Part shown: one piece after another, positions 29,242-46,258 of the stretch
How the letters are laid out: every line of letters begins with the position of its first letter
Numbering within the stretch: position 1 is the stretch's first letter
Assembly: GCA_044226625.1 (NCBI GenBank)
Contig: JBGAGQ010000013.1
Coordinates: 53,288-117,287 of the forward strand
Reading direction: 5' to 3'
Length of the DNA stretch: 64,000 nucleotides
DNA from: Thermoanaerobaculia bacterium
Lineage (GTDB): Bacteria; Acidobacteriota; Thermoanaerobaculia; Multivoradales; UBA5704
The notes under the pieces: generated by a model
Seen by the model: the letters and a program-made list of their open reading frames with translations, nothing else
Database searches by the model: none
What the model was told of the DNA's origin: nothing
Program-made: the position numbers and the translations under genes

Positions 29242-31041
29242 CTACTTCCGACCGCCTTTTTTCTGGTAACCGAACCCCATATGCGGCGTGGCGTTCAGGG
29301 TCAACGTGAGCGTCGCGGAATCTCCACCGGTGGTCGAGACCTTGCCGTAGAGCGGACCGCCGGGGGCGAAATTGTCGGCCGCGATGCGCACCTCATATCC
29401 GCCGAGCTCGTCGACCCCGAAGCAGACCAGGCCGTTCAAATCGGTGCCCCGCGCTGCGGCTGTGCAGGCGGTCCAGTCCGGGCTCGTCCGGTCACCGGTT
29501 CGGGTCGTGGCGAGAACCGCGCCGTCGCTCGGGCGGACGAGCTCGACTCGCACTCCGGCGATTCCGGAATCGGCCGGGTCCAGCCGGCCGACCTTGCCGC
29601 CGTCGGACCAGACGGTGCCGGTCACCACCTCGGCCGAGAGGTCGGGGCAGGCCGGTGCGGTCGGCACGTCGTCGAGATCCTCACCCGGAAGCGGCTCGCG
29701 GGTCGGACGGGTGGCGCAGATCGCGCCGTCCCACAGGACCGGGTTGCCGATGTCCAGGCCCACGATCTTCACCTTCCAGGTTCCGGCCGGCAACGTCGCC
29801 TCGCCGTACACGTGGTCCGCCATCGAAGCGACCGGCGAGGCCGAGCTGGCGATCAGGAACTGCTCCCACTCGTTCGAGCCGGAGGGATTGTCGTCGAAGT
29901 AGGTGTTTCCGAGCGGGTCGGTGACCTCGTAGCGCACGCAACCCACGCCGTTCGGATCGCCGATCTCGCCACGGCGGAGCTCGTCCATCGGGTTGTCGTC
30001 CGGCGGCGATCCGGGTCCCTGCGCGCCTTCGGCGGTTGCCTCATGGGTCACGAACGGGACGCCGTCGTAATCCGCCGCGGTGTCCGGGTCGTCGTCGTCC
30101 GTGCATGCGTCCAGCGAGATTCCCGAGGGATTCGCGACGAGCCCGTCCGTTCCGAAATCGAAGTCGCCGTCGAACGACCGAACCTCGGTCGCGCCCTCCG
30201 CCACCTCGAACGACATCTCGAACGTGCCGTCGTAGCTCACCGGGACCGGCGCCGAGGACGAGACGAGAGATTTCTTTCCGCCCCGATGGACCAGGGCTTC
30301 GTCGTCCACCGTCTGGCAGATTTCCCCCACCAGGCTGAAATGGTCGAGCCGCATCGTCGCCGGGGACGACACCGCAAGCTTGAAGTTGCTCTCCATCGCC
30401 TCGCCCGGATAGCAGTCGCCGTCGCTTTCGACGACCAGGTTGTAGAAGTAGTTCCCGCTCGGCGCTTCCGCCTCGACGGAAGGGGTGATCTCGAGCGACC
30501 ACCAGTCGTTGTCGGCCATCCAGGCCGAGGAGGCGGTCCAGGTCGAGCCCGTGGTGGGGTTCTCGGAGTTGCTGAACCATTCGCCGAGCAGGTTGGCGGG
30601 ATCCATGCTGCCCTGCCGGAGCGGATCGGCGTAGAGGGAGAATTTGATCGGATGGTTTCCGGCGTCCCAGTGCCGCTTGCTGAACACGTCGAAGTTTCCC
30701 GTATCGCCGTCGAACACGTTCAGCGTGAACGTCGTGGTACGTGCCGGAACGCCGAGCGTGATGCGCGGCCGCTGATCGATCGCCTCCGTGCTCGGACAGC
30801 CCAAGGTGAGGAACCGCGCGTCCGTCGTGCTCTGCGAGGGGAACGACGCGAACGGGGCGGTACCTTGTTGCGCCGTGAGGGGAGCGGCGGCGATCAGGCC
30901 GACGATGCCGAGGACCATGAGCGGCGACCTTCGGACTCGGACGGCCCGACGATCTTTGCTGCTCGGGTACGCGCGCTCCTCGGTAGTGCACGACACGCGA
31001 GCGAACCAATTGAAAACCGAAGAATTCCCGAGCTCTTTCAT
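29242..31041 (-). CDS. Secreted acidic protein of unknown family with C-terminal SdrD-B/CnaB-like domain (paralog A)
   Basis: GAGGAG RBS before ATG 31041, signal-like segment, end-to-end similarity to 44489-46258, GTVWSD...SGIAGVRVEL. Confidence 0.8.
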   Translation of the reverse strand: MKELGNSSVFNWFARVSCTTEERAYPSSKDRRAVRVRRSPLMVLGIVGLIAAAPLTAQQGTAPFASFPSQSTTDARFLTLGCPSTEAIDQRPRITLGVPARTTTFTLNVFDGDTGNFDVFSKRHWDAGNHPIKFSLYADPLRQGSMDPANLLGEWFSNSENPTTGSTWTASSAWMADNDWWSLEITPSVEAEAPSGNYFYNLVVESDGDCYPGEAMESNFKLAVSSPATMRLDHFSLVGEICQTVDDEALVHRGGKKSLVSSSAPVPVSYDGTFEMSFEVAEGATEVRSFDGDFDFGTDGLVANPSGISLDACTDDDDPDTAADYDGVPFVTHEATAEGAQGPGSPPDDNPMDELRRGEIGDPNGVGCVRYEVTDPLGNTYFDDNPSGSNEWEQFLIASSASPVASMADHVYGEATLPAGTWKVKIVGLDIGNPVLWDGAICATRPTREPLPGEDLDDVPTAPACPDLSAEVVTGTVWSDGGKVGRLDPADSGIAGVRVELVRPSDGAVLATTRTGDRTSPDWTACTAAARGTDLNGLVCFGVDELGGYEVRIAADNFAPGGPLYGKVSTTGGDSATLTLTLNATPHMGFGYQKKGGRK

Positions 31042-31108: not shown

Positions 31109-31123
31109 GCAAGCGGGATGCCA
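31109..31123 (-). promoter_or_regulatory. Sigma54 -24/-12 promoter of paralog A
   Basis: Minus strand TGGCATCCCGCTTGC, exact GG-N10-GC spacing. Confidence 0.8.
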
Positions 31124-31197
31124 CGGGGCACAAGGTCGAGAAAAGGGGGATTCCCCCGGGAAATGCACCGCGATAGGGCGTAACATCGCGTTCGGTC

Positions 31198-31250
31198 GTA
31201 CGGAAATCGGACCTCCGGTCTGGAGACCGGACAGATTCCGGACGCCGGCG
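31198..31250. promoter_or_regulatory. Candidate activator sites (UAS), GTCCG-N5-CGGAC-like
   Basis: GTACGGAAATCGGAC (31198), GTCTGGAGACCGGAC (31218) and a weaker TTCCGGACGCCGGCG (31236). Confidence 0.65.
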
Positions 31251-31376
31251 GGTTTCTGCTATCCAGAATCGACGATAGTGCTATCCTGATGGATGTCGTC
31301 AGCCGAATGACAATGCAGGGCGGGCCCTCGAAGGACCCTGCAGACGTCTCGCCCAAAAGAGGCGGATGGAGTTCGA

Positions 31377-32750
31377 ATGTCCCTTCCCAAGATCCTCATC
31401 GTCGACGATGAACCGGCGGTCCGCGTCGGCACGCGGATCTACCTCGAGGAGCATGGCTACCAGGCGCTCGAGGCTTCCACGATCGTCCAGGCTCGGATGC
31501 TGTTTCAGCGCGAGCGCCCGGATGCCGTGATCCTCGACTACTCGCTGCCCGACGGCACGACGCTCGGCATCCTGGACGAGATGCATTCGATCGATCCCCA
31601 CCTGCCCATCGTCATTCTGACCGGGCATGGGACGATTGACCTGGCAGTTCGGGCGATCAAGGACGGCGCGGAAAACTTCTTGACCAAGCCGGTCGAGCTG
31701 CCCGTGCTTCGAGTCATTTTGGAGAGAGCGCTCGAGAATCAACGGGCGCGCAGACGCCAAGTGGCTCAGACGGCGAACCGGCGCCGTAGCGGCTTTGATC
31801 CGTTCGTCGGAACGAGCAGCGCGATCCACCACTTCTCAGCCGAGGCGCAGTTCGCCCTCCGGTCCGACGGGCCGATCTTGATCCTCGGCGAGACTGGAAG
31901 CGGCAAAGGGGTACTGGCTCGCTGGTTTCACGAGGAGGGCGCTCGGCGTGACGAGTCGTTCGTCGACCTAAATTGCGCGGGTTTTTCCCGCGAGTTCCTC
32001 GAAAGCGAGCTGTTCGGCCACACCCGCGGCGCGTTTACTGGCGCGATTTCGGAAAAGAAGGGCCTTTTCGAGGTGGCGCACAAGGGGACGCTCTTCCTCG
32101 ACGAAGTCGGCGACTTCGATCTCGCCCTGCAGCCGAAGGTTTTGAAGGTGCTCGAGGAGAAACGCTTTCGGAAGATGGGCGAGGTCACCGACCGCGTCGC
32201 GGACGTGTTCCTGATCGCGGCGACCAACCACGACCTCCCGGTGCTCGTGCGGGAAGGTCGCTTCCGCAGCGACCTCTTCTTCCGCATCAGCACCTTCCCG
32301 ATCACCGTGCCGCCTTTGCGCGAGCGGGCCGAGGACATCCCGATGCTCGCCGACCAGCTGCTCAAGCAGCTACGCAGCGATCTGAGCCGTCCCTCTCTTC
32401 GCCTCACCCCCGCGGCCGTCGCCGCGCTCCGTGCCTACCGCTGGCCGGGCAACGTGAGAGAGCTGCGCAACGTTCTCGAACGCGCAGCGCTGCGCGCCGC
32501 CGACGGCGAGATCCAACCGAGCGATCTGAGCTTCGCCAACCTGCAGATGGATCCCACGACGGCGTCTCCCGCAGCGCGGGAGGGCGGAACTCTCGCCGAG
32601 ATCGAGCGGCGCGAGATCGAGCGCGCCCTCACCGAAGAGCAGGGGCGGGTCTCGGCCGCGGCGAAGCGTCTAGGACTCGCTCGAAGCACGCTCTACGACA
32701 AGCTCCGCGAACACGCGATCGATCTCGCGAAGTTCCAGAAGAAGCTTTGA
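31377..32750 (+). CDS. NtrC-family sigma54-dependent response regulator (REC-AAA+-HTH)
   Basis: GETGSGK, ESELFGH, intact GAFTGA, TLFLDEVG, WPGNVRELRN and a Fis-type HTH. Confidence 0.96.
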   Translation: MSLPKILIVDDEPAVRVGTRIYLEEHGYQALEASTIVQARMLFQRERPDAVILDYSLPDGTTLGILDEMHSIDPHLPIVILTGHGTIDLAVRAIKDGAENFLTKPVELPVLRVILERALENQRARRRQVAQTANRRRSGFDPFVGTSSAIHHFSAEAQFALRSDGPILILGETGSGKGVLARWFHEEGARRDESFVDLNCAGFSREFLESELFGHTRGAFTGAISEKKGLFEVAHKGTLFLDEVGDFDLALQPKVLKVLEEKRFRKMGEVTDRVADVFLIAATNHDLPVLVREGRFRSDLFFRISTFPITVPPLRERAEDIPMLADQLLKQLRSDLSRPSLRLTPAAVAALRAYRWPGNVRELRNVLERAALRAADGEIQPSDLSFANLQMDPTTASPAAREGGTLAEIERREIERALTEEQGRVSAAAKRLGLARSTLYDKLREHAIDLAKFQKKL

Positions 32751-32761
32751 GGCGCCGCGAG

Positions 32762-33850
32762 TCAGGAAGAGATCAGCCGGTTTTGCCCCCGCACCTCGAC
32801 GATCTCCGGCATCCGCGCCAAGAAGACGTCGAGCAAGTCGGGATCGAACTGGGTGCCACGCCCCTCCTCCATGATCCGCGCGGCTTCGCCGTCCGAGAGC
32901 GCCGGCCGGTACGGGCGATCGGAGGTGAGCGCGTCGAATACGTCGACGAGGGCGCAGAGGCGTCCGCCGAGGGGGATGCCCCTTCCGGCCAGACCGCGCG
33001 GATAGCCTGTGCCGTCCCAGCGCTCGTGATGGCTGAGAGCAATCACCTCGCCGGCTTGGAGTAGCTCGGACGACGAATCGGAGAGGATCTGGGCGCCGAT
33101 CACCGTATGGCGGTTCATGATCTCGCGTTCCGCCGGCGTCAAGGGGCCCTCCTTGAGCAGGATCGCGTCCGGGATGCCGAGCTTTCCCACGTCGTGCATG
33201 GGGATGGCATGGCGTAGGACGTCGATCTCGCGATCGGGAAGGTCTAGGGCACGCGCGAGGATCACGGCGTATTGGCTGAGCCTTTGGATGTGCTCGCCCG
33301 TGTAGCGATCTTTGTATTCCGCGGCGACCACCAGGCGACGGATCGTGTCGAGATGGGCGGCGTGCGTGTTGCGTTGTGCCTCGGCGGCCTCGGCGAGCGC
33401 CCGGCTGAGCGCCTCCGTCCTCAGGGCGACCTGACGCTCGAGATTGGCGCGCGCCGCCTTGAGCTCGTCGGAGGTCGCCTTGAGTCGAAGTTGAGACGCG
33501 AGTCTCACGGTGAGCTCGACCGCGTCGATCGGCTTGGCGATGAAATCGTTGACTCCCGTGGCGACGGCGCGAAGCCGATCCTCCCGGCTGTCGAGCGCGG
33601 TCACCAGGATGACGGGCAGCTCGAAGGGATCGACTCGCTCCCGAATGCGCCGGGTGACTTCGAAACCGTCGATGCCAGGCATCAAGACATCGAGGAGGAT
33701 CAGGTCGACGTCGAACGCCACCTCCAGCGCCTCGTTGCCGTCGCACGCCGTGGCGGTCGAGTAACCGAGCGACTGAACGATTTCCTCCATCAGCCGGCGA
33801 TTTTGCTCGCTGTCGTCGACGATCAGGATCTTGGATTCGGGATCCGGCAC
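32762..33850 (-). CDS. REC-HD-GYP cyclic-dinucleotide phosphodiesterase (RpfG-like)
   Basis: Receiver DVLMPGIDG, HDVGK, HHERWDGTGYP and DALTSDRPY. Confidence 0.93.
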   Translation of the reverse strand: MPDPESKILIVDDSEQNRRLMEEIVQSLGYSTATACDGNEALEVAFDVDLILLDVLMPGIDGFEVTRRIRERVDPFELPVILVTALDSREDRLRAVATGVNDFIAKPIDAVELTVRLASQLRLKATSDELKAARANLERQVALRTEALSRALAEAAEAQRNTHAAHLDTIRRLVVAAEYKDRYTGEHIQRLSQYAVILARALDLPDREIDVLRHAIPMHDVGKLGIPDAILLKEGPLTPAEREIMNRHTVIGAQILSDSSSELLQAGEVIALSHHERWDGTGYPRGLAGRGIPLGGRLCALVDVFDALTSDRPYRPALSDGEAARIMEEGRGTQFDPDLLDVFLARMPEIVEVRGQNRLISS

Positions 33851-33922
33851 CGCTCGACTCTAATGCCTAACGTACGTGACCACGACGATCTCGACGCAAA
33901 TTCGAGGTTGCGGTGGGCTCGC

Positions 33923-33960
33923 TTGTCCGAGGCTCGGACAAAGTCGTCCAGGTTTCGGAC
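33923..33960. promoter_or_regulatory. Candidate activator sites (UAS)
   Basis: Perfect palindrome TTGTCCGAGGCTCGGACAA (33923-33941) and GTCCAGGTTTCGGAC (33946), 21 bp apart. Confidence 0.7.
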
Positions 33961-34014
33961 AACGCATCGTGCCGAAGCCGTATGTTTTTCTCCGAAGACG
34001 CCGAGGAGCCGTCG

Positions 34015-34029
34015 CGGCATGCTTCTTGC
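34015..34029 (+). promoter_or_regulatory. Sigma54 -24/-12 promoter of the kinase operon
   Basis: CGGCATGCTTCTTGC, GG-N10-GC, ending 42 bp before ATG 34072. Confidence 0.75.
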
Positions 34030-34071
34030 CTTCGACGAAGTCTTTGTTCCTCTGCCGCAAGAGGGCCGATC

Positions 34072-35175
34072 ATGAACTTCGACTTGCCGACGTCGACCTC
34101 GACGGAGCTCGGGCGTGAAAGGGTTTTGATCGCGCTCGGCTCCGGCTTGGCGCATGAGATCAACAACCTCCTTTCGGCCATCATCATGTTGGTCGACCTA
34201 TGGTCCGGCAGGAATTCCTCCGATCGAGACCGCGAGCTGTTGGGAATGGTGGGCGAATCGGCTCGCAAGGGGGTCGCCCTCGTTCGCCAGCTGCACGGGC
34301 TGGCGCGCGCGACCGGGGGCGTATCGACGCCTTTCCAAGCGCGCCACCTGCTGGTGGACGTAGCGCGTTTCGCCGAGGCGGCGTTCGCTCCCCCGATCAG
34401 CGTCGAAGTGGATTTCTCCCCGGACCTCCGGCTGCTCGAGGCCGATCCGATCCCGGTCTACATTGCGTTGCTCGAGCTCTGTCAGATCTCACGCCGGCGC
34501 CTGCCGGCCGGAGGCGTGGTGGCCCTCGCCGTCCGCAACGTCGAGGTCGACGGGTTGGCGGCGGCCATGCGGTCCGGTCTCCTGCAAGGCGCCTATCTCG
34601 CGATCGAGCTGACGGTCGCCGCCGGCTCGGCGAAGGTCTCGGAGGAGGAACGGGCAACGGTCGCCGCATTGGGAGACTTCGCCGAGATCATCGCCGGTGA
34701 AGAATTGGACGAGACCCTCCGCGTCTACTTTCGCGCCGATCGCGAACCGGTCGGGTCGATCGAGCCGGCTCGTTCCGCGATCGCGCGGGTAGGGCACGGC
34801 GAGTTGATTCTGATCGCCGAGCCGTCCGCGATCGTCGGGGACGCGATGGCCCGAGCTCTCGAGGGGCACTCCTATGAAACGCTGATCGCTCGCGACGGCG
34901 CCGAGGCCCTCGCCCTGTTCGCCCGGCATTCCCCCACGGTCGCCCTCGTGATCGTCGGGTCCGGACTGCGCTTCCTCGACGGTCCGGATTGGGTCCTCGC
35001 CGCGCGGCATCTCAAGGAGAACGTGCCGGCGCTGCTCCTTCACGGCGAGGAGGCTTTGCCCGGGGCGGCCGAGCTCGCGCCGAAGGCGCGACTCCTCAAG
35101 AAACCCTTTTCGCTCGCCGACCTGCTCACCGCCGTTTCCGCGAGTCTCGCCTCGGCGAAAACGTTCGGTTCCTAG
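34072..35175 (+). CDS. Degenerate hybrid histidine kinase (H-box kept, ATPase and receiver decayed)
   Basis: GLAHEINNLL H-box, no N/G1/G2 boxes, receiver lacking acidic residues (LIAEPS, VIVGSG). Confidence 0.75.
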   Translation: MNFDLPTSTSTELGRERVLIALGSGLAHEINNLLSAIIMLVDLWSGRNSSDRDRELLGMVGESARKGVALVRQLHGLARATGGVSTPFQARHLLVDVARFAEAAFAPPISVEVDFSPDLRLLEADPIPVYIALLELCQISRRRLPAGGVVALAVRNVEVDGLAAAMRSGLLQGAYLAIELTVAAGSAKVSEEERATVAALGDFAEIIAGEELDETLRVYFRADREPVGSIEPARSAIARVGHGELILIAEPSAIVGDAMARALEGHSYETLIARDGAEALALFARHSPTVALVIVGSGLRFLDGPDWVLAARHLKENVPALLLHGEEALPGAAELAPKARLLKKPFSLADLLTAVSASLASAKTFGS

Positions 35176-35186
35176 GAGTGCGCGCA

Positions 35187-37118
35187 ATGCCCATCGAAGA
35201 GCGACAGCCGCAGGAAGCCTTTCTCGAAGCCCGGTTCAGCGACCTGTTGGAAGCCGCACCCGACGCGATCGTCATCGTGGGGGCGGACGGTAGGATCGTT
35301 CTGGTCAACGCCCAGGCCGAGACGCTGTTCGGTTATACCCGGAGCGAGTTGATCGGAGGGTCGCCGGACCTGCTGGTTCCTCGGCGTTTGCGCGACCGGC
35401 ATACGCGTCATCGGGCCGCCTATGCGAGAGAACCGAAGCTGCGGCCCATGGGCGCTGGAATGGATCTCTTCGGACTGCGCAAGGACGGTTCGGAGTTTCC
35501 GGTCGAGATCAGCCTCAGCCCGCTCGAAACTGACGAGGGTCTCCTGGTTTTTACCGCGATCCGCGACATCACGGAGCAACGGAATCTCCAGAGGGAATTG
35601 AGCGAGCAGTATCTCAGCCTCCAAACGGCAAACCGTCTGAAGAGCGAGTTCCTCGCGAACATGTCCCACGAGCTCCGCACGCCGCTCAACGCCATCATCG
35701 GCTTCAGCGAGCTGCTGCACGATGCTCGGGTCGGTCCGGTGACGACCGAACAGAGGGAATTCCTGGGAGACATCCTGGCGAGCTCGCGGCACCTTCTACA
35801 GCTGATCAACGACATTCTCGATCTCGCAAAGGTCGAGTCCGGTAGGATCGAGCTTGTTCCGGAGCCGATCGACCTGGGGCCGTTGATCGGCGAAGTGCGC
35901 GACATTCTGAGGACGATGGCCGCGCAGCGCAGGATTCGGATCGAGGTGCATGTAGCCCCGACTCTCACCGGCGTCGTCGCCGATGCCGCGAAGCTCAAAC
36001 AGGTGCTTTACAACTACCTGTCGAATGCTCTCAAGTTCTCTCCTGAGGGGGGCGTCATCGAGGTGCGGGTCCTGCCGGAAGGGACCGAGGAATTGCGGAT
36101 CGAAGTCGAAGACCGGGGAATCGGCATCCAACCGAAAGACATCGACCGGCTCTTCGTCGAGTTCCAGCAGCTGGACGCGAGCACCGCCAAGAAGTTCCAG
36201 GGCACCGGGTTGGGTCTCGCTCTCACTCGCCGCGTCGTCGAAGCGCAGGGCGGCCGGGTCGGAGTCGAGAGCACGCCCGGCGTGGGCAGCGTTTTCTACG
36301 CGGTATTGCCTCGGGTTTCGCCAGGGTCGGCGGATTACCGAGTCGAACCGCCGCCGGTCCAGGACGAAACGAGCTCGCGCCGGTTGTTGGTGATCGAGGA
36401 CGACGAAAACGACCGCGGCTGGCTGGTCCGCACGCTGGCCGACGCCGGGTACTCGGTGGACTCCGCGAGCGACGGTGCCGAAGCACTCCTTCGGTGTTGC
36501 GAGAGGGCCTACGACGCGATCACTCTCGACCTCATGCTCCCCGACATTCCGGGACGAAACGTGCTCCGTGCCGTCCGCGGCGGCGGGCTCAACCGAGGAA
36601 CCCCTGTCATCGTCGTCAGCGTGGTCGCTGAGCAGGGGATCGGACTCAGCTTTCCCGTCCACGACGTGTTCGAAAAGCCCGTACAGGCCGAGGAATTGTT
36701 GGCCTCGTTGAGCCGCGCAGCCGTCAAGCCTGAGGTGCGCCGGCCGGTGCTGGTCGTGGACGACGACGAAACGACTTTGAAGCTTGTCCAAGCGAAGCTC
36801 CTCCAGGAAGGGTACCGTCCGGTCTGCTGCTCGACCGGGCCCGCGGCGCTGAAGGCGGCCGCGGCCGAAATGCCGGCCGCTGTCGTGCTGGACATCGTGC
36901 TACCCGGTATGAGCGGATTCGAGTTCCTGCGGATCTTTCGCTCGACTCCCGAAGGGCGCCATACCCCCGTGATCGTCTGGACGGTCAAGGACCTGGTTCC
37001 TGCCGAACGCGAAGCGCTTCGCGCCTCGACTCGCGTCGTGCTCTCGAAAGGCGACGGTCTGGCGAGCTTGATCCAGGAGATCGAGAGTCTTTTCACGGAA
37101 CCCAAGGTGACATCGTAG
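35187..37118 (+). CDS. PAS-HK-REC-REC hybrid histidine kinase
   Basis: PAS (RKDGSEFPVEISLS), MSHELRTPL, NALKF, GTGLGL and two receivers. AGGAG RBS. Confidence 0.93.
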   Translation: MPIEERQPQEAFLEARFSDLLEAAPDAIVIVGADGRIVLVNAQAETLFGYTRSELIGGSPDLLVPRRLRDRHTRHRAAYAREPKLRPMGAGMDLFGLRKDGSEFPVEISLSPLETDEGLLVFTAIRDITEQRNLQRELSEQYLSLQTANRLKSEFLANMSHELRTPLNAIIGFSELLHDARVGPVTTEQREFLGDILASSRHLLQLINDILDLAKVESGRIELVPEPIDLGPLIGEVRDILRTMAAQRRIRIEVHVAPTLTGVVADAAKLKQVLYNYLSNALKFSPEGGVIEVRVLPEGTEELRIEVEDRGIGIQPKDIDRLFVEFQQLDASTAKKFQGTGLGLALTRRVVEAQGGRVGVESTPGVGSVFYAVLPRVSPGSADYRVEPPPVQDETSSRRLLVIEDDENDRGWLVRTLADAGYSVDSASDGAEALLRCCERAYDAITLDLMLPDIPGRNVLRAVRGGGLNRGTPVIVVSVVAEQGIGLSFPVHDVFEKPVQAEELLASLSRAAVKPEVRRPVLVVDDDETTLKLVQAKLLQEGYRPVCCSTGPAALKAAAAEMPAAVVLDIVLPGMSGFEFLRIFRSTPEGRHTPVIVWTVKDLVPAEREALRASTRVVLSKGDGLASLIQEIESLFTEPKVTS

Positions 37119-37127
37119 GGAGGACCC

Positions 37128-37508
37128 ATGGCCGGTGAATCGATCCTGATCGTCGACGACAACCTGGTGAACCTCAAGCTGGCGCGCGTTCTCCTCTCCT
37201 CGCACGGTTACGAAGTCCATACCGCGACGAACGCCGAGGACACCTTGGCGTTACTGCGGGCGAGCCGTCCGAAGATGATCGTCATGGACGTTCAACTGCC
37301 TGGGATGGATGGTCTGGAATTGACCCGCCGCCTAAAAGCCGATCCCTCTCTGAAGAGCGTGATCATCCTCGCCGTGACGGCCTACGCGATGAAAGGCGAC
37401 GAGGAAAAGGCCCGCGCCGCGGGCTGCGACGGATACGTCTCGAAGCCGCTCGACACCCGCCGCTTTCCAGTTGAGGTCGCGAGACTTCTTGGAACCACGG
37501 CGGAATGA
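37128..37508 (+). CDS. Single-domain response regulator (DivK-like)
   Basis: ILIVDDN, MDVQLPGMDG and AVTAYAMKGDEEKARAAGCDGYVSKP. Confidence 0.92.
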   Translation: MAGESILIVDDNLVNLKLARVLLSSHGYEVHTATNAEDTLALLRASRPKMIVMDVQLPGMDGLELTRRLKADPSLKSVIILAVTAYAMKGDEEKARAAGCDGYVSKPLDTRRFPVEVARLLGTTAE

Positions 37509-39871
37509 AGATCCTCGTCGTCGACGACCTCCCGGTCAATCGCAAGCTCCTGCGGATCACGCTCCGGGCCGGAGGGCACGAGCCGGTCGAAGCGGTCGAT
37601 GGTCTCGAGGCGCTCGAACGCCTTCGCCGTGAGGGTTTCGACGCGGTCATTACCGACGTTCTGATGCCGAGGATGGACGGGCATAGTCTTTGCCGAGAAA
37701 TCCGGCGTGATCCGGGCTTGATGCATCTTCCCGTGATCGTGACCAGCGCCACCTATCTCGCGGATTCCGATCAAGCTGTAGCCCTCGATTCCGGCGCGGA
37801 TGACTTCCTGCGTTTTCCCGCCGGTCCCGACCAGATTCTGGACGCGTTGCTCCGCGTCGTCCGCAAGCCGCGGTCAAACCCGGTCGGCCCACCGGTCAGC
37901 GACGCGATCAAGGAGTATAGCGAAGCCCTCGTTCGCGCGCTGGAGGCGAAGAACATCGAGCTCGAAGCGACCCGCTCGCGGCTGGCGGCCGCGAACGAGG
38001 CTCTGCACGAGTCCGAAGAGAGTTTTCGCCGGATTTTCCGGGTAAGCCCCGTCGCGGCGAGCCTTTCAGATGTCGAGACGGATCAGTTCGTGGACGTCAA
38101 CGAGCGGTTGAACGAGATGTTGGGCTATACGAGGGAGGAGCTCGTCGGCCGGACCTCGGTCGAGCTCGGCCTCTGGGTCGATCCCTCGGAGCGTGAAGAG
38201 ATGCTCTCGGCCGTCGTGGCCTCCGATTCCCTTCGCGACCGCGAGATTCGCCTTCGGACCAAGCTTGGGGAAATTCTTCATGCGTTGAAGTCGGTCGAGC
38301 TCGTAACCAGCGGCAGCAAACGGCTCCTGTTGTCGGCCTTTTACGACATCACGGAACGGCGTAAGGCTGAGGCGGCGCTGCGCGAAAGCGAAGCGCGCTA
38401 CCGGGCTCTTTTCGACCGCGGCCCCTTGCCGATGTGGATCTACGACTCGGATTCCTTGGCCTTTCTGGAAGTCAACGAGACCGCAATTCGAAGCTATGGC
38501 TACTCGAAAGAAGAGTTCTTGGCCATGACCCTCAGGGACATCCGTCCGCCGGAGGACATTCCGAAACTCCTCGCCGTCGTCCGCGGCTCTCCGAGGTCGG
38601 ACCACCCCGGGGTCTGGCGACACTGGAGGAAGGACGGTTCCGAGATCGAAGTCGAGGTCCACACCCACCAGATCGGCCTGACGACGAGCAACTTACGCAT
38701 CGCGGTCCTCCAAGACGTCACCGAGCAGAGGCGGCTCGAAAAGCAGCTGCGACATGCCCAGAAGATGGAGGCCGTAGGAACCTTGGTGAGTGGGATCGCA
38801 CACGATTTCAACAACCTCCTTACGCCGGTGCTCAGCTACTGCGACCTCCTAGAGGGCGAAATCGATGTTCAGTACCGAGATCAGATCCGAGAGATTCGGA
38901 AAGCGGGCGAGCGGGCTGCGACCATCACCCGGCAGCTCCTCGCATTCAGCAGGCAACAGGTACTGAGACCGGAGGTTCTCGACCTCAACGTCATCGTTCG
39001 CGAGATGGAGTCGATGCTCCGTCCCCTCCTGGGTGAAAACCTTGTGCTCCGAACGGTGCTGAGCCCCCGGCTTGGATACGTTGAAGCGGACCGCGGCCAG
39101 ATCGATCAAGTGCTCATGAACCTGGTGGTGAACGCGCGCGACGCAATGCCGTCCGGCGGGTATTTGACTATCGAGACTCGCGATGCCTCCATTGACGAAG
39201 TCTATGCGCAGCGAAGAGTCGGCATGCTGCCGGGTTCCTATGTGATGCTCTCCGTCACCGATACGGGCGTTGGAATGGACGAGGAGGTGAAGTCGCGGCT
39301 CTTCGAGCCGTTCTTCACGACCAAGGGTCCGGGGAAGGGGACGGGCCTCGGCCTCGCGACGCTCTACGGCATCGTCAAGCAGTCGAAGGGGCATGTCTGG
39401 GTCTACAGCGAGCTGGGCCACGGCTCGTCGTTCAAGGTGTACCTGCCGCGTTCGGGGGAGCCGATTCTCAAGACGGACTCCGTGCCCGTGATTGCGGTGC
39501 CCCCGACGTTGATTGGAGAAGAGACTATTCTGGTCGTAGAAGACGACGACGCAGTCCGCCTTGCCACCCAGATTGCGCTCGAGCGCTACGGCTATTCGGT
39601 CCTGGTCACCCGAGGCGGTGAGGAAGCCCTTGAGGTGGCAAGTCTTCATCAGGGAACAATCCACGCCATGGTGAGCGATGTGCTGATGTCGGGAATCAAC
39701 GGGCCGGAGCTCGCGGTCCGCATCGAGAATCTTCTCCCTGGAATCCGAGTAGTCCTGATGTCCGGCTACTCGGAACACACCCTAAGGTTGACGGGCGATT
39801 GGAGCATCCTCGAAAAGCCCTTCACGGCCGAGGCGTTGGCTCGAAAACTGCGGCAAGCTCTGGACGCTTAG
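37505..39871 (+). CDS. REC-PAS-PAS-HK-REC hybrid kinase (CckA-like core)
   Basis: AQKMEAVG...[17 protein letters not shown] and [18 protein letters not shown]. Confidence 0.93.
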
Positions 39872-41055
39872 CGAGGTCTCAACCGGATCAGAGGGTCGCT
39901 TCCGACGCTTTCGCCCTCGGCGGGTAAGCTGAAGCGGAAGGCGGCTCCGCGGTTGACTTCGGCGGTCGCCCAGACGTGGCCCCCGTGGCGCAAAACGATT
40001 CGGCGCACAAGGGAGAGACCGACACCAGTGCCCTCGAAATCGTCGGCGCGATGAAGGCGCTGGAACACGCCGAAAAGCGCATCTGCCTTCTGCTCATCGA
40101 AACCGACGCCATCGTCTCGAACGACGAAGACTAGGCGTTCACCCTCGTCGCAGCCGCTCACTTCGATCACGGCGCGCTCCTTCTTGGCGGTGAACTTCAA
40201 GGCGTTCGAGAGGAGATTTGCGAACACGTGTTTGAGCAGGGCTCGATCCGAGAAGGCATTCGGCAGCGGGCCCACGCGGATCTCGACGTACCGGCCAGAA
40301 TGCGAACCACGGAGTTCGGAGAGAACTTCTTGGACCAGATCCGTGACATCTACGGTCCGTTTGACGAGAGCCTGTTCGGTGGCCTGCGAGAAGCGGAAGA
40401 GGTCGTCGATCAGGCGGTTCATGCCTTCGGCCGCTCGGACCACCTCCTCTAGATAATCGCGACCGTCTTCGGGGAGGACCGTCGAGTGTCCTCGGATCAA
40501 CAGCCGTGTGAAGCCGATGACGGCTCCCAGCGGGCCGCGCAGCTCGTGAGCTACCGCGCGGGTAAAGGAGTCGAGTTCGCGATTCGCTGCTTCGAGTTCG
40601 TTCGCCCGCTCGTTCAGGCGGCGATGAAGCTCCTCGTTCTCCCGTCGAAGCTTCCGGATTGACAGGGCTCGCCCGAGCACCGGCAAGAGAGCGCTCAGTC
40701 GGAAGGGTTTCAGGATGAAGTCGAGCGCGCCAGCTTTCATCGCTTCGACGGCGTTCGAGATGGTACCCTCGCCGGTCATGATGATTCCGGCCAGGTCCGG
40801 GTCGGAGCGCTGAGCCGCCGCCAGGAGGGCGATACCGTCCATCTCCGGCATCGCCAGATCAGTCAGAAGGAGGTCGAATGCACCGGGCGTGAGGGTGTCG
40901 AGCGCCTCCTGCCCCGACGCGTAGCTCGCGGTCTCGAAGCCCTCGATCTCGAGCGCGTCGCACAGGGCCTTCCGGTGTGCCGCCTCGTCGTCGACGACGA
41001 GGAGCCGGACGATCGGTTTTCGGGAAGGGGAGCCGAAAGGGCCGCCGGCGGACAT
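39868..41055 (-). CDS. REC-HK protein
   Basis: Receiver DLAMPEMDG, AHELRGPL, NALKF and FEGTGVGL. ATG at 41055 just after the upstream stop. Confidence 0.9.
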   Translation of the reverse strand: MSAGGPFGSPSRKPIVRLLVVDDEAAHRKALCDALEIEGFETASYASGQEALDTLTPGAFDLLLTDLAMPEMDGIALLAAAQRSDPDLAGIIMTGEGTISNAVEAMKAGALDFILKPFRLSALLPVLGRALSIRKLRRENEELHRRLNERANELEAANRELDSFTRAVAHELRGPLGAVIGFTRLLIRGHSTVLPEDGRDYLEEVVRAAEGMNRLIDDLFRFSQATEQALVKRTVDVTDLVQEVLSELRGSHSGRYVEIRVGPLPNAFSDRALLKHVFANLLSNALKFTAKKERAVIEVSGCDEGERLVFVVRDDGVGFDEQKADALFGVFQRLHRADDFEGTGVGLSLVRRIVLRHGGHVWATAEVNRGAAFRFSLPAEGESVGSDPLIRLRPR

Positions 41056-41056
41056 T

Positions 41057-44000
41057 TCAGGCCGCACCCGCGCGAAAGCTCTGCAACAAGGTGTCGCGAA
41101 GCTCGCGAATCCTCGGGGGCTTGCTGAGAACGTGGTCGACATGCTGTGGCACGTCTCCTTCTTCCACGAGCCGCTGCCCCCAGCCGGTCAGTAGAATGAC
41201 CGGAGTTGAAGGCGAAGCCAGCTTGACGGCGCTCGCCACCTTGTTTCCGTCGACGTAGGGCATCCCGAGGTCGGTGATGACCACACCGAACGGCTCGCCA
41301 CGCGCCTTTGCGGCGATGAACTCGTCGATCCCCGCCTGGCCCTGGTTCGCGGCGAACACAAGGTGGCCGTCGACTTCCAGGATGTCGCGCAGGGACCGGA
41401 GCAACAACGGATCGTCGTCGACCACGAGGATGCGGAGGCGAGGCGGCACCGACATAGTTGGGGCGGCGGCGGAATCCGCTGACTTCGGGTCGGCCGCGGC
41501 GGCCGCGAACGTCAGGCGGACCGTCGTTCCGACGCCGACCGTGCTCTCGATGCCCAAGTCCGCGCTATGCCGCCTCGCCATTCCGTACACCATCGCAAGG
41601 CCCAGCCCGGTGCCGCGCTCACCCTTGGTGGTGAAGAACGGCTCCATGCACTTTTGCAGAACCTCTTTTGTCATACCGCAACCGGTATCGCCCACCTCGA
41701 GGTAGACCTGCCCTCCTCCGGAGCCGGTTCGGATCAAGAGTTTCCCGCCTTCCGGCATCGCGTCGACCGCGTTGAACACAAGGTTGATCAGGGACTCGCG
41801 GATCTCGCTCTCGACCCCCATGACCTCTGGAAGGTTCTGCTCGAGCTGCGTGTCGAGCTCAATAACGACACCCCGCATTTGCGGCATGTCGTGCCAGCGG
41901 GCGCGTGAGAGGTCGATCACTTGCCGGACCAGCCGATTGAAATCGAGCGAGGCGAGGACGAGCTGTGGCTCGCGTTGTCGGTAAAACTCCCGCATCCGGC
42001 CCACCGTCTGGCCGACGTCTTCGATCGCATGCTGGATCGTCAGTAGGAACTCGCGAGCTCGGACGCTCAAGTTCAGTTCCTGCTCAAGCAACAGCTCAGT
42101 GTAGAGGACCACGGGCGAAATGGCGTTGTTGATGTCATGGGCGATGCCGCTCGCCATCTGGCCGAGCGCCCGCAGCCTCTCTTGTTGCATCACGGCTTGC
42201 TGCGACTGGCGAAGGTCGTCATACGCCTGTTGCAGCGCCGTGTAGAGTTGGGCTTGATGGGCCGCGAGAGCGACGTGCTCGCCGAGCTGTTTGAGGAACT
42301 CGCACTCGCCGCTGTCGAAGGCGTCGGCGGCGGGCCGGGCCGCGACGAAGACGCCAAAAACCATGCTCTCGGCGGCGAGCGGCGCAAAGACGAGAGAGCG
42401 AAGCCCGCCGGCGGCGAGCCGCTGCGGAAATGGGAACGGTACCTGAGTGATGTCTGGCTCGTAGACGAGCCTGCCCGCGATGCATCGAGACAGGCCGTTG
42501 GCATCGACGGCGACGAGTGCCTGCTCGGGTAGCGCCAGGCTGCGGGCAAGAGAATCGCTCTTGACGCCGACCGCAGAGACGGTGAGGGTCCGGTCGGGAG
42601 CATCGTAAAGGCAGAGGCAACAGAAGTCGACCGGCAGGTTGTCCTCGACGGTGCGAATCACCACCTGGAAGATGCTGTGCAGGTCCTGGCGTTCCGAGAT
42701 GGCGCGCGTGATCTGGTTCAAGAGACTGAGTCGCTCGAGCTGGGCGCCGAGCTTCGACTCGGCTCTTTTCCTTTCGGCGACTTCGCTCTCCAGGCTCTTT
42801 GTCGTCTCGACCAGCTCGGCCGTACGCTGTTCGACGCGGATCTCGAGCAGATCGCGCGCCTTCCCTAGAGCTTGGGCCTGACTCTCGATCCTCTCCGCCA
42901 TTGCGTTGAAACTAGTGCCCAGCCGGCCGAGCTCGTCCGGAGGGCCGGCCGCTACCCGGGCGCCTAGATCGCCGTCGGCGATCCTTTCGGTCGCCGCTGA
43001 CAGCGAACGGATCGGTCGCAGGATAAGTGCGGCGAAACCTGCTCCCGCGAGGAGGGCGGCCAAGATGATCGGAGCGGCGACGAGCAGGTGCTCCCGCACG
43101 TGGCGGTCGATCTCGGCCCGAATCGTGACCTCCGGCAGCATGTAGAAGACCGTCCAGGGCACGGACTTGAAGCGGCGGGCGACGCCGTAGTTCCACTTGC
43201 CGTCGACCGGGGCGAAACCGCGAAAGACCCTCGGGTCGGGAGACGGCGAGCGGGAAAGCTCGAACAGCGCGGGAAAGGCCCGCACGTCCGCGAGCAACTC
43301 CCGAGTCTTCGGACCGAATCGCGACTCAGACACGAAGGTCTTGGCGACCGCGGGTTCCACCGCGCCGCCCGGATGGAAGACGATCTCGTCGCTGTAGGTA
43401 TGGGCGATCCGGATTCCGTACTGGTCGAACACGACCGCGAAACTACCCGGACCTGCGAGCGCGTTGGAAGTTTTCATCACGTCCCAAAGCGCCGCGGCCC
43501 GAGCCCAGATCGCGACGAGGCCCCGGACGTTCACCCCTTCCCGGATCGGCTCTAGGTAGGCGATGGTGGGAGCGTCCGCCGCATGAGGCTCGAGGTAGAC
43601 GTCGGAGATTACGGCGGTTCCTTCGAGGGCGTCCCGGACGAAACTATGGAAGGACAGGTCGACGCCGACGAGCTCCTTCTCGGTCGCGGCCACCACGGTT
43701 CCGGTCGAGTCGAGCACCGCCAAGCCGCGAACTCTAGAGTCGACCGCAGGCCTCGCGGCAAGCGTCGCTTCTACCTCCAAGCGAACCCTGTCGCCCGGCA
43801 CGCCTCGGCTGAGCGCCAAGACGCTGGGAAAGCGAGCGAAGCTTTTCGCCGTCCGCTGGATTCCAACGTGGAAAGTGTCCAGCTCGCGGGCCAACTGGTC
43901 GCCCCGGGCGGCCAGTTGGTTCTCGGCATTCGCGACGAGCTCGATGCGAGTCTCGCGGATGTCGAGAGATGCCGAGATGATGAGAGGTAAGAGCGACGCA

Positions 44001-44065
44001 AGCGCCAAGAGTGCCGCGATCTTTGCCCTTAGCGGCCAGCTCGCGACGGGTAGTAAGTACTTCAT
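41057..44065 (-). CDS. Membrane hybrid sensor kinase (Cache-like, HAMP, GAF, HK, REC)
   Basis: Two TM helices around a periplasmic domain, HAMP DELGRLGTSFNAM, GIAHDINN, PFFTTKGERGTGLGL and a receiver. AAGGAG RBS. Confidence 0.92.
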   Translation of the reverse strand: MKYLLPVASWPLRAKIAALLALASLLPLIISASLDIRETRIELVANAENQLAARGDQLARELDTFHVGIQRTAKSFARFPSVLALSRGVPGDRVRLEVEATLAARPAVDSRVRGLAVLDSTGTVVAATEKELVGVDLSFHSFVRDALEGTAVISDVYLEPHAADAPTIAYLEPIREGVNVRGLVAIWARAAALWDVMKTSNALAGPGSFAVVFDQYGIRIAHTYSDEIVFHPGGAVEPAVAKTFVSESRFGPKTRELLADVRAFPALFELSRSPSPDPRVFRGFAPVDGKWNYGVARRFKSVPWTVFYMLPEVTIRAEIDRHVREHLLVAAPIILAALLAGAGFAALILRPIRSLSAATERIADGDLGARVAAGPPDELGRLGTSFNAMAERIESQAQALGKARDLLEIRVEQRTAELVETTKSLESEVAERKRAESKLGAQLERLSLLNQITRAISERQDLHSIFQVVIRTVEDNLPVDFCCLCLYDAPDRTLTVSAVGVKSDSLARSLALPEQALVAVDANGLSRCIAGRLVYEPDITQVPFPFPQRLAAGGLRSLVFAPLAAESMVFGVFVAARPAADAFDSGECEFLKQLGEHVALAAHQAQLYTALQQAYDDLRQSQQAVMQQERLRALGQMASGIAHDINNAISPVVLYTELLLEQELNLSVRAREFLLTIQHAIEDVGQTVGRMREFYRQREPQLVLASLDFNRLVRQVIDLSRARWHDMPQMRGVVIELDTQLEQNLPEVMGVESEIRESLINLVFNAVDAMPEGGKLLIRTGSGGGQVYLEVGDTGCGMTKEVLQKCMEPFFTTKGERGTGLGLAMVYGMARRHSADLGIESTVGVGTTVRLTFAAAAADPKSADSAAAPTMSVPPRLRILVVDDDPLLLRSLRDILEVDGHLVFAANQGQAGIDEFIAAKARGEPFGVVITDLGMPYVDGNKVASAVKLASPSTPVILLTGWGQRLVEEGDVPQHVDHVLSKPPRIRELRDTLLQSFRAGAA

Positions 44066-44141
44066 GCTCCTTCTCTAGATCTCACCCTCAGGGTAACGGC
44101 GGGAACGCCGGTAGGGTGACGGATCGTCGTATCTGCCTTTT

Positions 44142-44170
44142 AGCATAGACCAAATACGTTTTACGCTCAA
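44142..44170 (-). promoter_or_regulatory. Sigma70-like promoter of the membrane sensor kinase
   Basis: TTGAGC-N17-TATGCT in an AT-rich patch. Confidence 0.55.
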
Positions 44171-44301
44171 CATCGAATCCGAGCGGGTCGGATACGGACG
44201 ACCGTGATGTGAGGAGGCGGCCGGGAGATTTCATGCCGTTGAAGGCGATCGATCGCTGCCTCGCCGATAGGCGCGATCCTGTCGGCTTCCGCTTCGAGAT
44301 C

Positions 44302-44337
44302 GTCGGCCTTTCGGAAAGAGTCGTCCGGTTCCCGGAC
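44302..44337. promoter_or_regulatory. Candidate activator sites (UAS)
   Basis: GTCGGCCTTTCGGAA (44302) and GTCCGGTTCCCGGAC (44323), 21 bp apart; a half-site GTCGG lies another 21 bp upstream at 44281. Confidence 0.7.
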
Positions 44338-44371
44338 CTCGAGGGCCATCGTCTTCTCCGACTCTTCGTGA

Positions 44372-44384
44372 AATCAACGACTTG
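44372..44384 (+). promoter_or_regulatory. IHF binding site
   Basis: AATCAACGACTTG matches WATCAANNNNTTR exactly, between the UAS and the sigma54 promoter. Confidence 0.7.
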
Positions 44385-44400
44385 ACTACGCCCTCCGTTC

Positions 44401-44415
44401 GGGCATGCCGCGTGC
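44401..44415 (+). promoter_or_regulatory. Sigma54 -24/-12 promoter of paralog B
   Basis: GGGCATGCCGCGTGC, GG-N10-GC, supported by the UAS and IHF context. Confidence 0.65.
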
Positions 44416-44488
44416 CTTCTACAGGTTTTCGGAAGGCATCCCGCCTCCCCTCGCTAGCTTCGAAAGCTTCTTTTTCAAGGAGGGCGCC

Positions 44489-46258
44489 ATGTCCCTTGAA
44501 CGACAGTTCTATCTTCACGTCATGAGCGGCCTTCGGGTCCGGTCGAGCCGAATCCACGGGCTCGTCTTCGCCTGGATCCTTTTCTCGTTCAGCTCGGTAG
44601 CCGCGTTCGCGCAAGCGGGCACCCCGCCCTTTGCCGCCTTCCCGACGCAGAACCCCACCGATGGACGTTTTCTCGGTTTCGGCTGCTCGGGCCTTTCGAC
44701 CCTCGAGCAGTCGGTCCACCTGACGATTGGCGCGCCCGCGAGCTCGACGACGTTCACCTTGAACGTCTTCGACGGCGAAACCGGCAGGCCGGATTCGAAC
44801 AACAAAGCGCATTGGGATCTCGGGTCCCGGCAGCTCAAGTTCGCCCTGTACGCGGATCCGCTCCGGACAGCCAACACGGACCCCGGCAATCTGATCGGCT
44901 CCTGGGTGGGCAACGGAACGAATCCGACCTCCGGCCCGCTCTGGACCGCGAGCTCCGCCACCATGGCCGACAACGATTGGTGGTCGGTCGAGTTGACGAA
45001 CTCGCCGCTCGCGCTCGCGCCGAGCGGAAACTACTCGTACAACCTGACGATCGGAACCGACGGCTCCTGCAATACCGGCGAGCAGCTGGAGAGCAGCCTC
45101 AAGATCGCGGTCTCGTCGCCCGCCTCGTTCCGCATCTACCACTTCGCCCTCGTGGCCGGTCTGCGCCAGGTCGCCAATGACGTGCCGATCATCTACCCAG
45201 GCTCGACGCCGACCGCCCCCGCGACCGGCAGCTTCCTCACCGCCCCGACGACCTACGACGGAACCTTCGATTTCTTCTTCACCTTGCCGGGTGGCGAATC
45301 GGCCTTGCGCCTGTTCGACGGAGACTTCGACTACGGGACGGGCAACCTCACGGGGAATCCTTCCGGCGTACCGCTCGACCCCTGCGTCGATCAGGACGAT
45401 CCGGACACGCCGGCCGACTACGCGGGCTTTCCGTTCGCGACGCCGGGAGCCAACCCGGAGGGAACACAGGGAGTCGGCGTTCCGCCGGACGACAACTACC
45501 GCGACATCTTCCGCCGGGGCGAGCTGGGTGACCCCGCCGCGGTCGGTTGCGTGCGCTACGAAGTGATGGATCCGGAAGGCAACGTCTATTCGAACGACAA
45601 CCCCTCGGGAAGCTCGGAGTGGGAGCAGTACCTGATCGCGAGCTCCTCCTCGCCCGACGCCTCGATGGCCGACGCCGTCTACTCCGGCGCGACCCTCCCC
45701 TCGGGAATGTGGAAGGTGCGAATCATCGGCCTCGACCTGGCGAACCTGAACCTCTGGTCGGGGGACTCCTGCTCGACGCGTCCCGAGCGTGATCCCCTTC
45801 CCGAAGAAGATCCGTACCTCGTCCCGCGCGTTGCCGCCTGCCCCGACGAGTCGGCCTTCATCCTGGGTGACACGGTGTGGGAAGACGCCGACGGTGACGG
45901 TTCTTTGTCCAGGAAGGAATCGGGAATCCCCAACGTGGCGATGGAGCTCGTGCGGCGGAGCGACGGCGCGGTCGTCGAGACGACGCTCACCGGAGACGTC
46001 CGGAATCCCAACTGGTCCTCCTGCCTCGCCCACAACACGGGCAACGACCTCCAGGGTCTCTACTGCTTCGGGGTCGCGAAAACCGGCGCCTACTTCGTCC
46101 GGGTCGCCGCGTCGAACTTCGCCCCGGGAGGTGCGCTCGAAGGCAAGCTCTCGACGGACGACTCGGCCGACAGCGTTCCGTCGGGCGGCCGGTCGAACGT
46201 GCTTTCCTACCGCTTCGGGTTCCGCGGCGATGGCGTCTCGAGCGTCGAGCTCAAGTAG
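44489..46258 (+). CDS. Secreted acidic protein of unknown family with C-terminal SdrD-B/CnaB-like domain (paralog B)
   Basis: AAGGAGGG RBS, signal peptide ending AFA, GDTVWEDADGDG...ESGIPNVAMEL, paralog of 29242-31041. Confidence 0.82.
   Translation: MSLERQFYLHVMSGLRVRSSRIHGLVFAWILFSFSSVAAFAQAGTPPFAAFPTQNPTDGRFLGFGCSGLSTLEQSVHLTIGAPASSTTFTLNVFDGETGRPDSNNKAHWDLGSRQLKFALYADPLRTANTDPGNLIGSWVGNGTNPTSGPLWTASSATMADNDWWSVELTNSPLALAPSGNYSYNLTIGTDGSCNTGEQLESSLKIAVSSPASFRIYHFALVAGLRQVANDVPIIYPGSTPTAPATGSFLTAPTTYDGTFDFFFTLPGGESALRLFDGDFDYGTGNLTGNPSGVPLDPCVDQDDPDTPADYAGFPFATPGANPEGTQGVGVPPDDNYRDIFRRGELGDPAAVGCVRYEVMDPEGNVYSNDNPSGSSEWEQYLIASSSSPDASMADAVYSGATLPSGMWKVRIIGLDLANLNLWSGDSCSTRPERDPLPEEDPYLVPRVAACPDESAFILGDTVWEDADGDGSLSRKESGIPNVAMELVRRSDGAVVETTLTGDVRNPNWSSCLAHNTGNDLQGLYCFGVAKTGAYFVRVAASNFAPGGALEGKLSTDDSADSVPSGGRSNVLSYRFGFRGDGVSSVELK

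Follow-up and report, generated by a model that had tools for sequence, protein, structure and literature searches.

Tandem GTCCG-N5-CGGAC sites as the probable enhancer of an NtrC-family sigma-54 activator in a Thermoanaerobaculia bacterium

Several activators of the sigma-54 RNA polymerase work from paired palindromic sites. Enteric NtrC (NR-I) recognizes the site TGCACC-N5-GGTGCA and at glnAp2 it occupies paired dimer sites, which lie on one face of the helix approximately 100-140 bp upstream. It oligomerises on this enhancer and reaches the sigma-54 polymerase by a looped contact. NtrC1 and NtrC4 likewise use palindromic sites arranged in tandem before a -24/-12 promoter. Here we describe a comparable locus of a Thermoanaerobaculia bacterium. 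The window, that is the whole stretch of DNA analyzed, comprises 64,000 nucleotides of contig JBGAGQ010000013.1 (GCA_044226625.1, forward strand, positions 53,288-117,287), and coordinates given without a contig or locus name are counted from its first letter. We observed in it three tandem pairs of a palindrome, each facing a sigma-54-type promoter, near the gene of an NtrC-family bacterial enhancer-binding protein (bEBP). The sequence features of the pairs, their uniqueness in the genome and the way they accompany the gene from genus to genus are direct observations. Taken together they suggest that the three pairs are very probably the upstream activating sequences of the regulator encoded at 31377-32750.

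The operator consensus that we scored was GTCCG-N5-CGGAC, a palindrome of 15 bp. The sites, the promoters, a match to the consensus of integration host factor (IHF) and the activator gene are as follows.

31198..31212, unstranded, operator pair 1, site proximal to P1, GTaCGgaaatCGGAC, 1 mismatch
31218..31232, unstranded, operator pair 1, distal site, GTCtGgagacCGGAC, 1 mismatch
33925..33939, unstranded, operator pair 2, distal site, GTCCGaggctCGGAC, 0 mismatches
33946..33960, unstranded, operator pair 2, site proximal to P2, GTCCaggtttCGGAC, 1 mismatch
44302..44316, unstranded, operator pair 3, distal site, GTCgGcctttCGGAa, 2 mismatches, the weakest of the six
44323..44337, unstranded, operator pair 3, site proximal to P3, GTCCGgttccCGGAC, 0 mismatches
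31123-31109, minus strand, sigma-54-type promoter P1, TGGCATcccgcTTGC, 75 bp from the proximal site to GG
34015..34029, plus strand, sigma-54-type promoter P2, cGGCATgcttcTTGC (element GGCATgcttcTTGC at 34016-34029), gap 55 bp
44401..44415, plus strand, sigma-54-type promoter P3, gGGCATgccgcGTGC (element GGCATgccgcGTGC at 44402-44415), gap 64 bp
44372-44384, plus strand, IHF consensus between operator 3 and P3, AATCAACGACTTG, which fits WATCAANNNNTTR
31377..32750, plus strand, bEBP, NtrC-family REC/AAA+/Fis-HTH sigma-54 activator (Pfam and translation)

The six sites, two of them perfect (33925 and 44323), were read directly in the sequence at the positions given by the preliminary description of this DNA, and the three -24/-12 promoters, the gaps of 75, 55 and 64 bp and the IHF consensus were likewise found where it had placed them. 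The spacing within the pairs was 20, 21 and 21 bp for pairs 1, 2 and 3, respectively, and an extra half-site, CCGGAC, follows the distal site of pair 1 at 31238-31243. A ribosome-binding site and a start codon lie 57-73 bp past each promoter, with the starts at 31041 (minus strand), 34072 and 44489. As calculated from the gaps, the operator centres are approximately 87-127 bp upstream of the expected start sites, and the arrangement is that of upstream activating sequences, namely dyad sites approximately 80-150 bp before a GG-N10-GC element. All three pairs are located in divergent intergenic regions. When the three regions were aligned, little was conserved outside the sites and the promoters, although the genes read from P1 and P3 (targets 1 and 3 below) are paralogous.

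We compared the frequency of single and paired sites with the background of this 6.6 Mb genome (67.7% G+C), a check that the preliminary description had asked for. Single sites occurred at chance frequency: there were 11 with at most one mismatch in the window, while 10.9 were expected from shuffles, and 30 perfect ones in the whole genome, while approximately 29.5 were calculated from base composition. The pairs, on the other hand, exceeded the background. We scanned the genome at spacings from 15 to 60 for pairs whose two sites together had no more than 2 mismatches. Three were found at spacing 20-21, which are exactly the three pairs of the window, all within 13 kb; the remaining 44 spacings gave 9 pairs in total, approximately 0.2 per spacing. 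The strict promoter pattern GGCA[CT]-N5-[TG]TGC is present only 143 times on both strands of the genome, and every window pair has such a promoter 55-75 bp away, aimed at a gene start. The IHF consensus occurs 20 times genome-wide; of the 143 strict promoters, P3 alone has a copy in the 120 bp before it.

The product of the activator gene has a receiver domain (PF00072, residues 6-113) with D10, D11 and D54 visible in the translation; D54 was assigned as the phospho-acceptor by its position only. It further contains the sigma-54 interaction domain (PF00158, E 1.4e-56; GAFTGA and the Walker A motif GETGSGKG are present in the translation), an AAA_lid domain and a Fis-type helix-turn-helix (HTH; PF02954, HTH_8, residues 405-445, E 1.7e-11). 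A close paralogue of its last 63 residues is absent from the genome, where the second-best match is 46% identical (E 2.7e-7). No other protein at 29-47 kb has a DNA-binding domain recognized by Pfam, and no kinase gene adjoins the bEBP gene in a shared operon. The genome contains one rpoN gene (PF04552, 222.9 bits, contig C76) and four HU/IHF-family genes, one of which scored above the IHF-beta cut-off (120.9 bits vs 115). None reached the IHF-alpha cut-off of 111 bits, the best values being 73-94 bits. The closest solved structures are 4l4u, 3dzd and 1ny5 (residues 5-448 matched, E 1.9e-81), which we take to be NtrC1/NtrC4 of Aquifex aeolicus; the structure search labels them only 'Transcriptional regulator (NtrC family)'.

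A DNA search across all 92 genomes of the family gave full-length relatives of the bEBP, with 61-68% identity, in three other genera. In the reciprocal test, the proteins of nine relatives hit the window bEBP best (64-68%, compared with approximately 50% for the next hit). For these relatives we used the relaxed operator GTCCR-N5-YGGAC with at most one mismatch per site. Of the pairs in eight orthologue loci of genus g5 (125,006 bp), 14 had a spacing of 20 and one had a spacing of 21; the other spacings from 15 to 60 together gave 4 pairs. For 13 of the 15 pairs at spacings 20 and 21 a regular expression detected a sigma-54-type element 34-73 bp away and aimed at a gene; the elements of the other two, TGGCACGCGGGATGCA and TGGCCCGCGCCTTGC, were found by eye. 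In the complete genome G071 all five pattern matches clustered around the orthologue, within 11.3 kb, and none were obtained with the reversed pattern as control. Three of four genome-wide matches adjoin the orthologue in G056, two of three flank it in G020, and one of four lies beside it in G079. The sole match in G012 is 11 kb from the orthologue on the same contig, where the control also gave one match. With wider flanks, the orthologues of genera g4 and g6 yielded 4 pairs (G020), 2 pairs (G012) and 1 pair (G106). The 1.5-kb bEBP flanks taken from 40 relatives were too short; hits of 65-67% identity lay directly after a kinase gene, and pairs were seen with wider flanks.

Altogether, where the orthologue was at least 61% identical, 10 of 11 loci had a tandem operator with 19-21 bp spacing; where the homologue was 53-57% identical, 2 of 9 loci had a pair. 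A control set of 2.12 Mb, taken from around distant homologues of the bEBP, had a single pair at spacing 21 and none at spacing 20. At the G071 locus the Pfam-matched proteins were a PAS kinase, the bEBP, REC, REC-GGDEF, REC-PAS-GGDEF-EAL, PAS-GGDEF and PilZ proteins and a secreted M10 peptidase, and the bEBP was the only one with a DNA-binding domain. The targets in relatives would include GGDEF, EAL and PilZ proteins and a secreted protease. Since the tandem operator co-occurs with the orthologues, we assign the sites to this activator. The preliminary description had proposed that the adjacent bEBP binds the pairs, and the proposal gained support from four sides: the pairs are unique, the bEBP is the sole DNA-binding protein in the cluster, its HTH has no close paralogue, and the pairs travel together with its orthologues.

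The motif was aligned from 38 sites, 32 from relatives and the six of the window. The symmetrised consensus of the 32 relatives' sites is cGTCCAGAnTCTGGACg. In their half-sites T2 and C3 were invariant (64/64 each) and C4 was present in 63/64; in the window half-sites the values were 12/12, 11/12 and 10/12, respectively. Positions 5-6 differ, being G then R in the window (GTCCGR) and A then G in the relatives (GTCCAGA). The site form would be GTCCAGAnTCTGGAC for the G071 orthologue and GTCCGRnnnYCGGAC for the window protein. The recognition helix also differs, with LGLARSTLYDKLREH in the window and LGIPRSTLYQKIKE in the relatives (ARSTLYDKLRE vs PRSTLYQKIKE). We infer that the drift of the operator and that of the helix may be linked.

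The preliminary description had seen one-turn steps in the three gaps between the proximal site and the promoter. From these three gaps alone the claim is weak, and it became supportive once they were pooled with 18 gaps from the orthologue loci (n = 21, not independent). The gaps fell into classes of 41-46 bp (11), 53-55 bp (2), 64-68 bp (4), 73-75 bp (2) and 34 bp (1). Orthologous promoters differ across genomes by approximately two or three turns; the gaps at the REC-GGDEF gene were 42, 43, 65 and 73 bp. The Rayleigh R was 0.56-0.57 at a period of 10.5-11, a value reached by 30 of 20000 random sets, or by 246 of 20000 when only the 13 distinct gap values were used. As the gaps are not independent, we regard the phasing as supportive and not decisive.

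Single tandem pairs were also observed between two divergent sigma-54-type promoters in relatives, at locus L272 (3761-3795 and 13785-13819) and locus L279 (3409-3443), with gaps of 44 and 68, 42 and 68, and 46 and 43 bp, respectively. Such enhancers may therefore act in both directions.

Several results speak against the assignment of the pairs to this bEBP. Binding, activation, the kinase and its signal are all predictions, and the case as a whole is drawn from sequence. The relatives' proteins and the window protein need not share an identical specificity, since their sites differ (GTCCGR vs GTCCAGA). One orthologue locus, L276, had no pair in the 20 kb fetched and one perfect single site at its edge. 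Seven other genomes of the same genus lacked a bEBP orthologue (best match 47%), and there is thus no close-range footprint of the window promoters. In genome and metagenome contig collections we found nothing above 55% and 52% identity, respectively, and no convincing pairs. At the homologues of the secreted proteins encoded by targets 1 and 3 (28 loci; 25 of 41 related genomes) we saw no pair whose mismatches summed to 2 or fewer. Within the window, site 44302 carries two mismatches, and P2 and P3 are quasi-palindromic (34015-34031 and 44401-44417), so that their reverse strand also reads GG-N10-GC. The opposite strand of P3 is even slightly closer to the consensus, with 9/12 positions compared with 8/12 for the forward strand. 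We prefer the forward direction for P2 and P3 because of the downstream gene starts and by analogy with P1.

It could be that the sites are owned by another regulator, either a different bEBP or a protein of another class, and that their proximity to this gene is coincidental or results from co-regulation. There are many paralogous activators in the genome, as 112 candidate stretches for bEBP were listed, and the Fis-type recognition helix RSTLY-K is common to many of them; to assign a site to a protein is beyond what sequence alone can give. We nevertheless consider such an owner unlikely, as tandem sites cluster at the orthologous gene in four genera and in differing neighbourhoods, the bEBP is the only DNA-binding protein common to those loci, and pairs are rare near more distant homologues. 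Another explanation is that the pairs mainly serve the divergent partners of the three intergenic regions, namely the bEBP gene itself, a REC-HD-GYP regulator and a HAMP-GAF hybrid kinase, through repression or autoregulation instead of enhancement. The divergent position of all pairs and the quasi-palindromic P2 and P3 would suit this explanation, as would the relatives, in which some pairs serve promoters on both sides and the kinase-bEBP operon of G071 is preceded by its own tandem pair and TGGCACGCGGGATGCA. On the bEBP-facing side of the pair 1 region, however, we found neither a convincing -24/-12 element nor a sigma-70-like match, and the gaps to P1-P3 fall in the same phased classes as in relatives. 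We regard repression or autoregulation as the main role as quite unlikely, and an operator for the divergent genes is in any case compatible with an enhancer. The missing promoter also leaves the autoregulation of the bEBP, suggested in the preliminary description, unsupported in this genome, although by analogy with the G071 operon it is plausible.

The pairs might finally have no regulatory role and be chance occurrences or short remnants of a repeat family whose period is 20-21 bp. Arrays of similar units with this period do exist in the same genome (C93:63727-63890), in G004 and in genomes of genus g8, and single sites are no more frequent than chance. Yet the array units are not palindromic and differ from the operator at 3 of 10 fixed positions. 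Pairs at 20-21 are more numerous than at other spacings, the three of them lie inside 13 kb, each is coupled to a rare promoter pattern, and the operator sites are conserved beside orthologues. An origin by chance or from such repeats is therefore very unlikely in our opinion. The reading of the pairs as enhancers of the NtrC-family regulator is the one that we follow below.

The genes at the three regions are listed here.

29242..31041, minus strand, target 1, 599-aa secreted protein, N-terminal hydrophobic segment, weak SdrD_B-like C-terminal match
32762..33850, minus strand, REC-HD-GYP (HD_5) response regulator, divergent from P2 (Pfam)
34072..39871, plus strand, target 2, four-gene signalling operon, intergenic gaps of 11, 9 and -4 bp
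34072-35175, plus strand, target 2 gene 1, HisKA plus REC-like (Pfam)
35187-37118, plus strand, target 2 gene 2, PAS-HK-REC-REC (Pfam)
37128-37508, plus strand, target 2 gene 3, REC (Pfam)
37505-39871, plus strand, target 2 gene 4, REC-PAS-HK (Pfam)
44489..46258, plus strand, target 3, 589-aa secreted paralogue of target 1, SdrD_B C-terminal match

The switch is thus predicted to govern a pair of paralogous secreted proteins and a kinase/receiver operon of four genes. The proteins of targets 1 and 3 are 55% identical; neither an NCBIfam family nor a PDB relative was found for them, and the Atlas gave no hit that could be used. There was no terminator-like site between target 3 and the next gene at 46457.

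We propose the following mechanism, which draws on established knowledge of activators of the NtrC, NtrC1 and DctD type. Each 15-bp palindrome would be bound by one dimer through the C-terminal Fis-type HTH, with the half-site centres 10 bp apart. Two dimers, 20-21 bp or two helical turns apart, would then lie on the same face of the DNA. Phosphorylation of D54 by a kinase would allow the AAA+ domains to assemble into an active ring, which would meet the sigma-54 RNA polymerase at the -24/-12 promoter by DNA looping, probably helped by IHF at P3. ATP hydrolysis would finally drive promoter opening. The kinase/receiver operon (target 2) might feed back on the signalling.

A third paralogue of the secreted protein is present in the same genome (G000:C96; region upstream of it, L003 1330-1380); it is 71% identical and has neither the operator nor a sigma-54 promoter. 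Most homologues of the secreted protein (L003, L004-L010, L029) adjoin a divergent gene, whose product resembles at its start a SARP/BTAD-type activator, and carry direct repeats CCTGACG-N4-CCTGACG approximately 100 bp upstream. Because the homologues elsewhere stand beside the SARP-like gene and these repeats, the two copies in the window look rewired to sigma-54 control. Beside a secreted-protein homologue at L006 we saw one pair, with 3 mismatches, that looks like a chance occurrence.

One biofilm metatranscriptome contained contigs matching a piece of the bEBP gene within 31667-32002 (31 differences in 336 bases), as well as pieces of the REC-HD-GYP gene (32766-33449) and of the kinase/receiver genes (35124-41919), at 90-99% likeness overall. 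The kinase/receiver matches had 1-6 differences per 300-570 bases. These matches indicate that a close relative is present in that RNA library. We saw no cover over 44.0-44.6 kb among its contigs, which show no transcript starts.

Further candidates for the operator were rejected. A fourth target on contig C24 (pair 42875/42896, 3 mismatches) had the invariant T2/C3 broken in both sites and a terminator between its sites and its promoter. Five more pairs found in the same genome under the relaxed consensus corresponded to the background level, and when the whole family was searched for the pattern at spacing 21 with up to 3 mismatches, the counts were not above the reversed-pattern control. 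On the minus strand of contig C24 (L260 774-898, G000:C24:42573-42697) we also observed a good sigma-54-type promoter, GGCACGGTAATTGC, followed approximately 85-110 nt on by a strong intrinsic terminator, with no open reading frame between them. This element could be a sigma-54-dependent small RNA; it had no Rfam match.

Other repeated elements were seen in the genome and its relatives. Two loci, L261 1228-1391 (G000:C93:63727-63890) and L246 1870-2060 (G004:C42), contain eight or nine tandem 20-bp units resembling GTCCCGGAWTCCGAATTTCC. The G004 array may be origin-associated, as it adjoins DnaA-box-like repeats (TTATCCAC). The genus g8 genomes G043 and G014 have a 21-bp unit, GTCCGAAAGGCGTACGCCGCG, in arrays scattered over many loci, a repeat family without an assigned role.

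L252 2020-2180, array of the g8 21-bp unit
L253 2118-2280, array of the g8 21-bp unit
L254 2100-2430, array of the g8 21-bp unit
L255 1985-2250, array of the g8 21-bp unit
L258, array of the g8 21-bp unit
L259, array of the g8 21-bp unit

Genus g2 (L251 1982-2119, L249 1953-2079, L250 1029-1155) has a conserved GTCCGnTTCnGGGAC-N6-TTCCCGCAAnCGGAC approximately 78-91 bp upstream of a sigma-54-type promoter, GGCATGGCCCGTGC, which precedes genes for an HlyD-like adaptor and an ABC ATPase. The arrangement resembles an enhancer that has a related half-site and serves another activator. At L124 6888-6930, from a Vicinamibacteria metagenome-assembled genome, an intergenic 22-bp direct repeat, GTGCnAnnTTCGGACTGA, is present in two copies with no evident sigma-54 promoter nearby; we judged it unrelated to the operator.

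The window may contain one part of a sigma-54 regulon that is spread through the family, extends over at least four genera and is governed by a single activator lineage, comprising proteins of cyclic di-GMP turnover (GGDEF, EAL, PilZ and HD-GYP neighbours), secreted proteins and the activator's own kinases. We hold this wider view tentatively, at slightly less than an even chance. The ties to GGDEF, EAL, PilZ and HD-GYP and to secreted proteins suggest control of a surface or biofilm state. If our reading is true, the locus offers a precise and cheaply testable cis-element, together with a regulon, for one of many uncharacterised sigma-54 activators in a poorly studied GC-rich lineage. It would go beyond a routine operator if the operator and the helix have drifted together, as they may have, and if sigma-54 has taken over two genes of a secreted-protein family, as it appears to have done. 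The variation between genera (GTCCAGA/GTCCGR, 20/21 bp, promoter gaps differing by whole turns) could be used to map HTH residues onto the bases that they read. The understanding of sigma-54 activation itself would be unchanged.

The kind of switch described here is the standard enhancer of a sigma-54 activator, while its particular operator has not been previously described within the literature searched. We did not find the operator motif there in any of five spellings, and in the titles and abstracts retrieved for the half-sites combined with sigma54 or 'enhancer-binding protein' the matches read as primer noise. The bEBP scored below every NCBIfam equivalog cut-off. The best family was TIGR02915, the PEP-CTERM-box response regulator, which has the same domain order (343.7 bits vs a cut-off of 502.6); we noticed no PEP-CTERM tail in the C-termini of the translations, where no motif search was aimed at such tails. 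TIGR01818 followed (340.9 bits vs 558.6), and the protein is thus no equivalog of enteric NtrC, from which the system also differs in its site, GTCCG-N5-CGGAC, in its spacing of two turns and in targets without a link to nitrogen. NtrC1 and NtrC4 share with the window protein the REC/AAA+/Fis-HTH architecture, and differ in operator sequence and in targets; in NtrC1 the receiver domain acts negatively. Comparative reconstructions of sigma-54 regulons have the same logic as our locus: in one such report on Clostridiales (PMC6615313), an activator-specific palindrome lies upstream of a -24/-12 promoter, beside the activator gene, and it is the lineage and the motif that differ.

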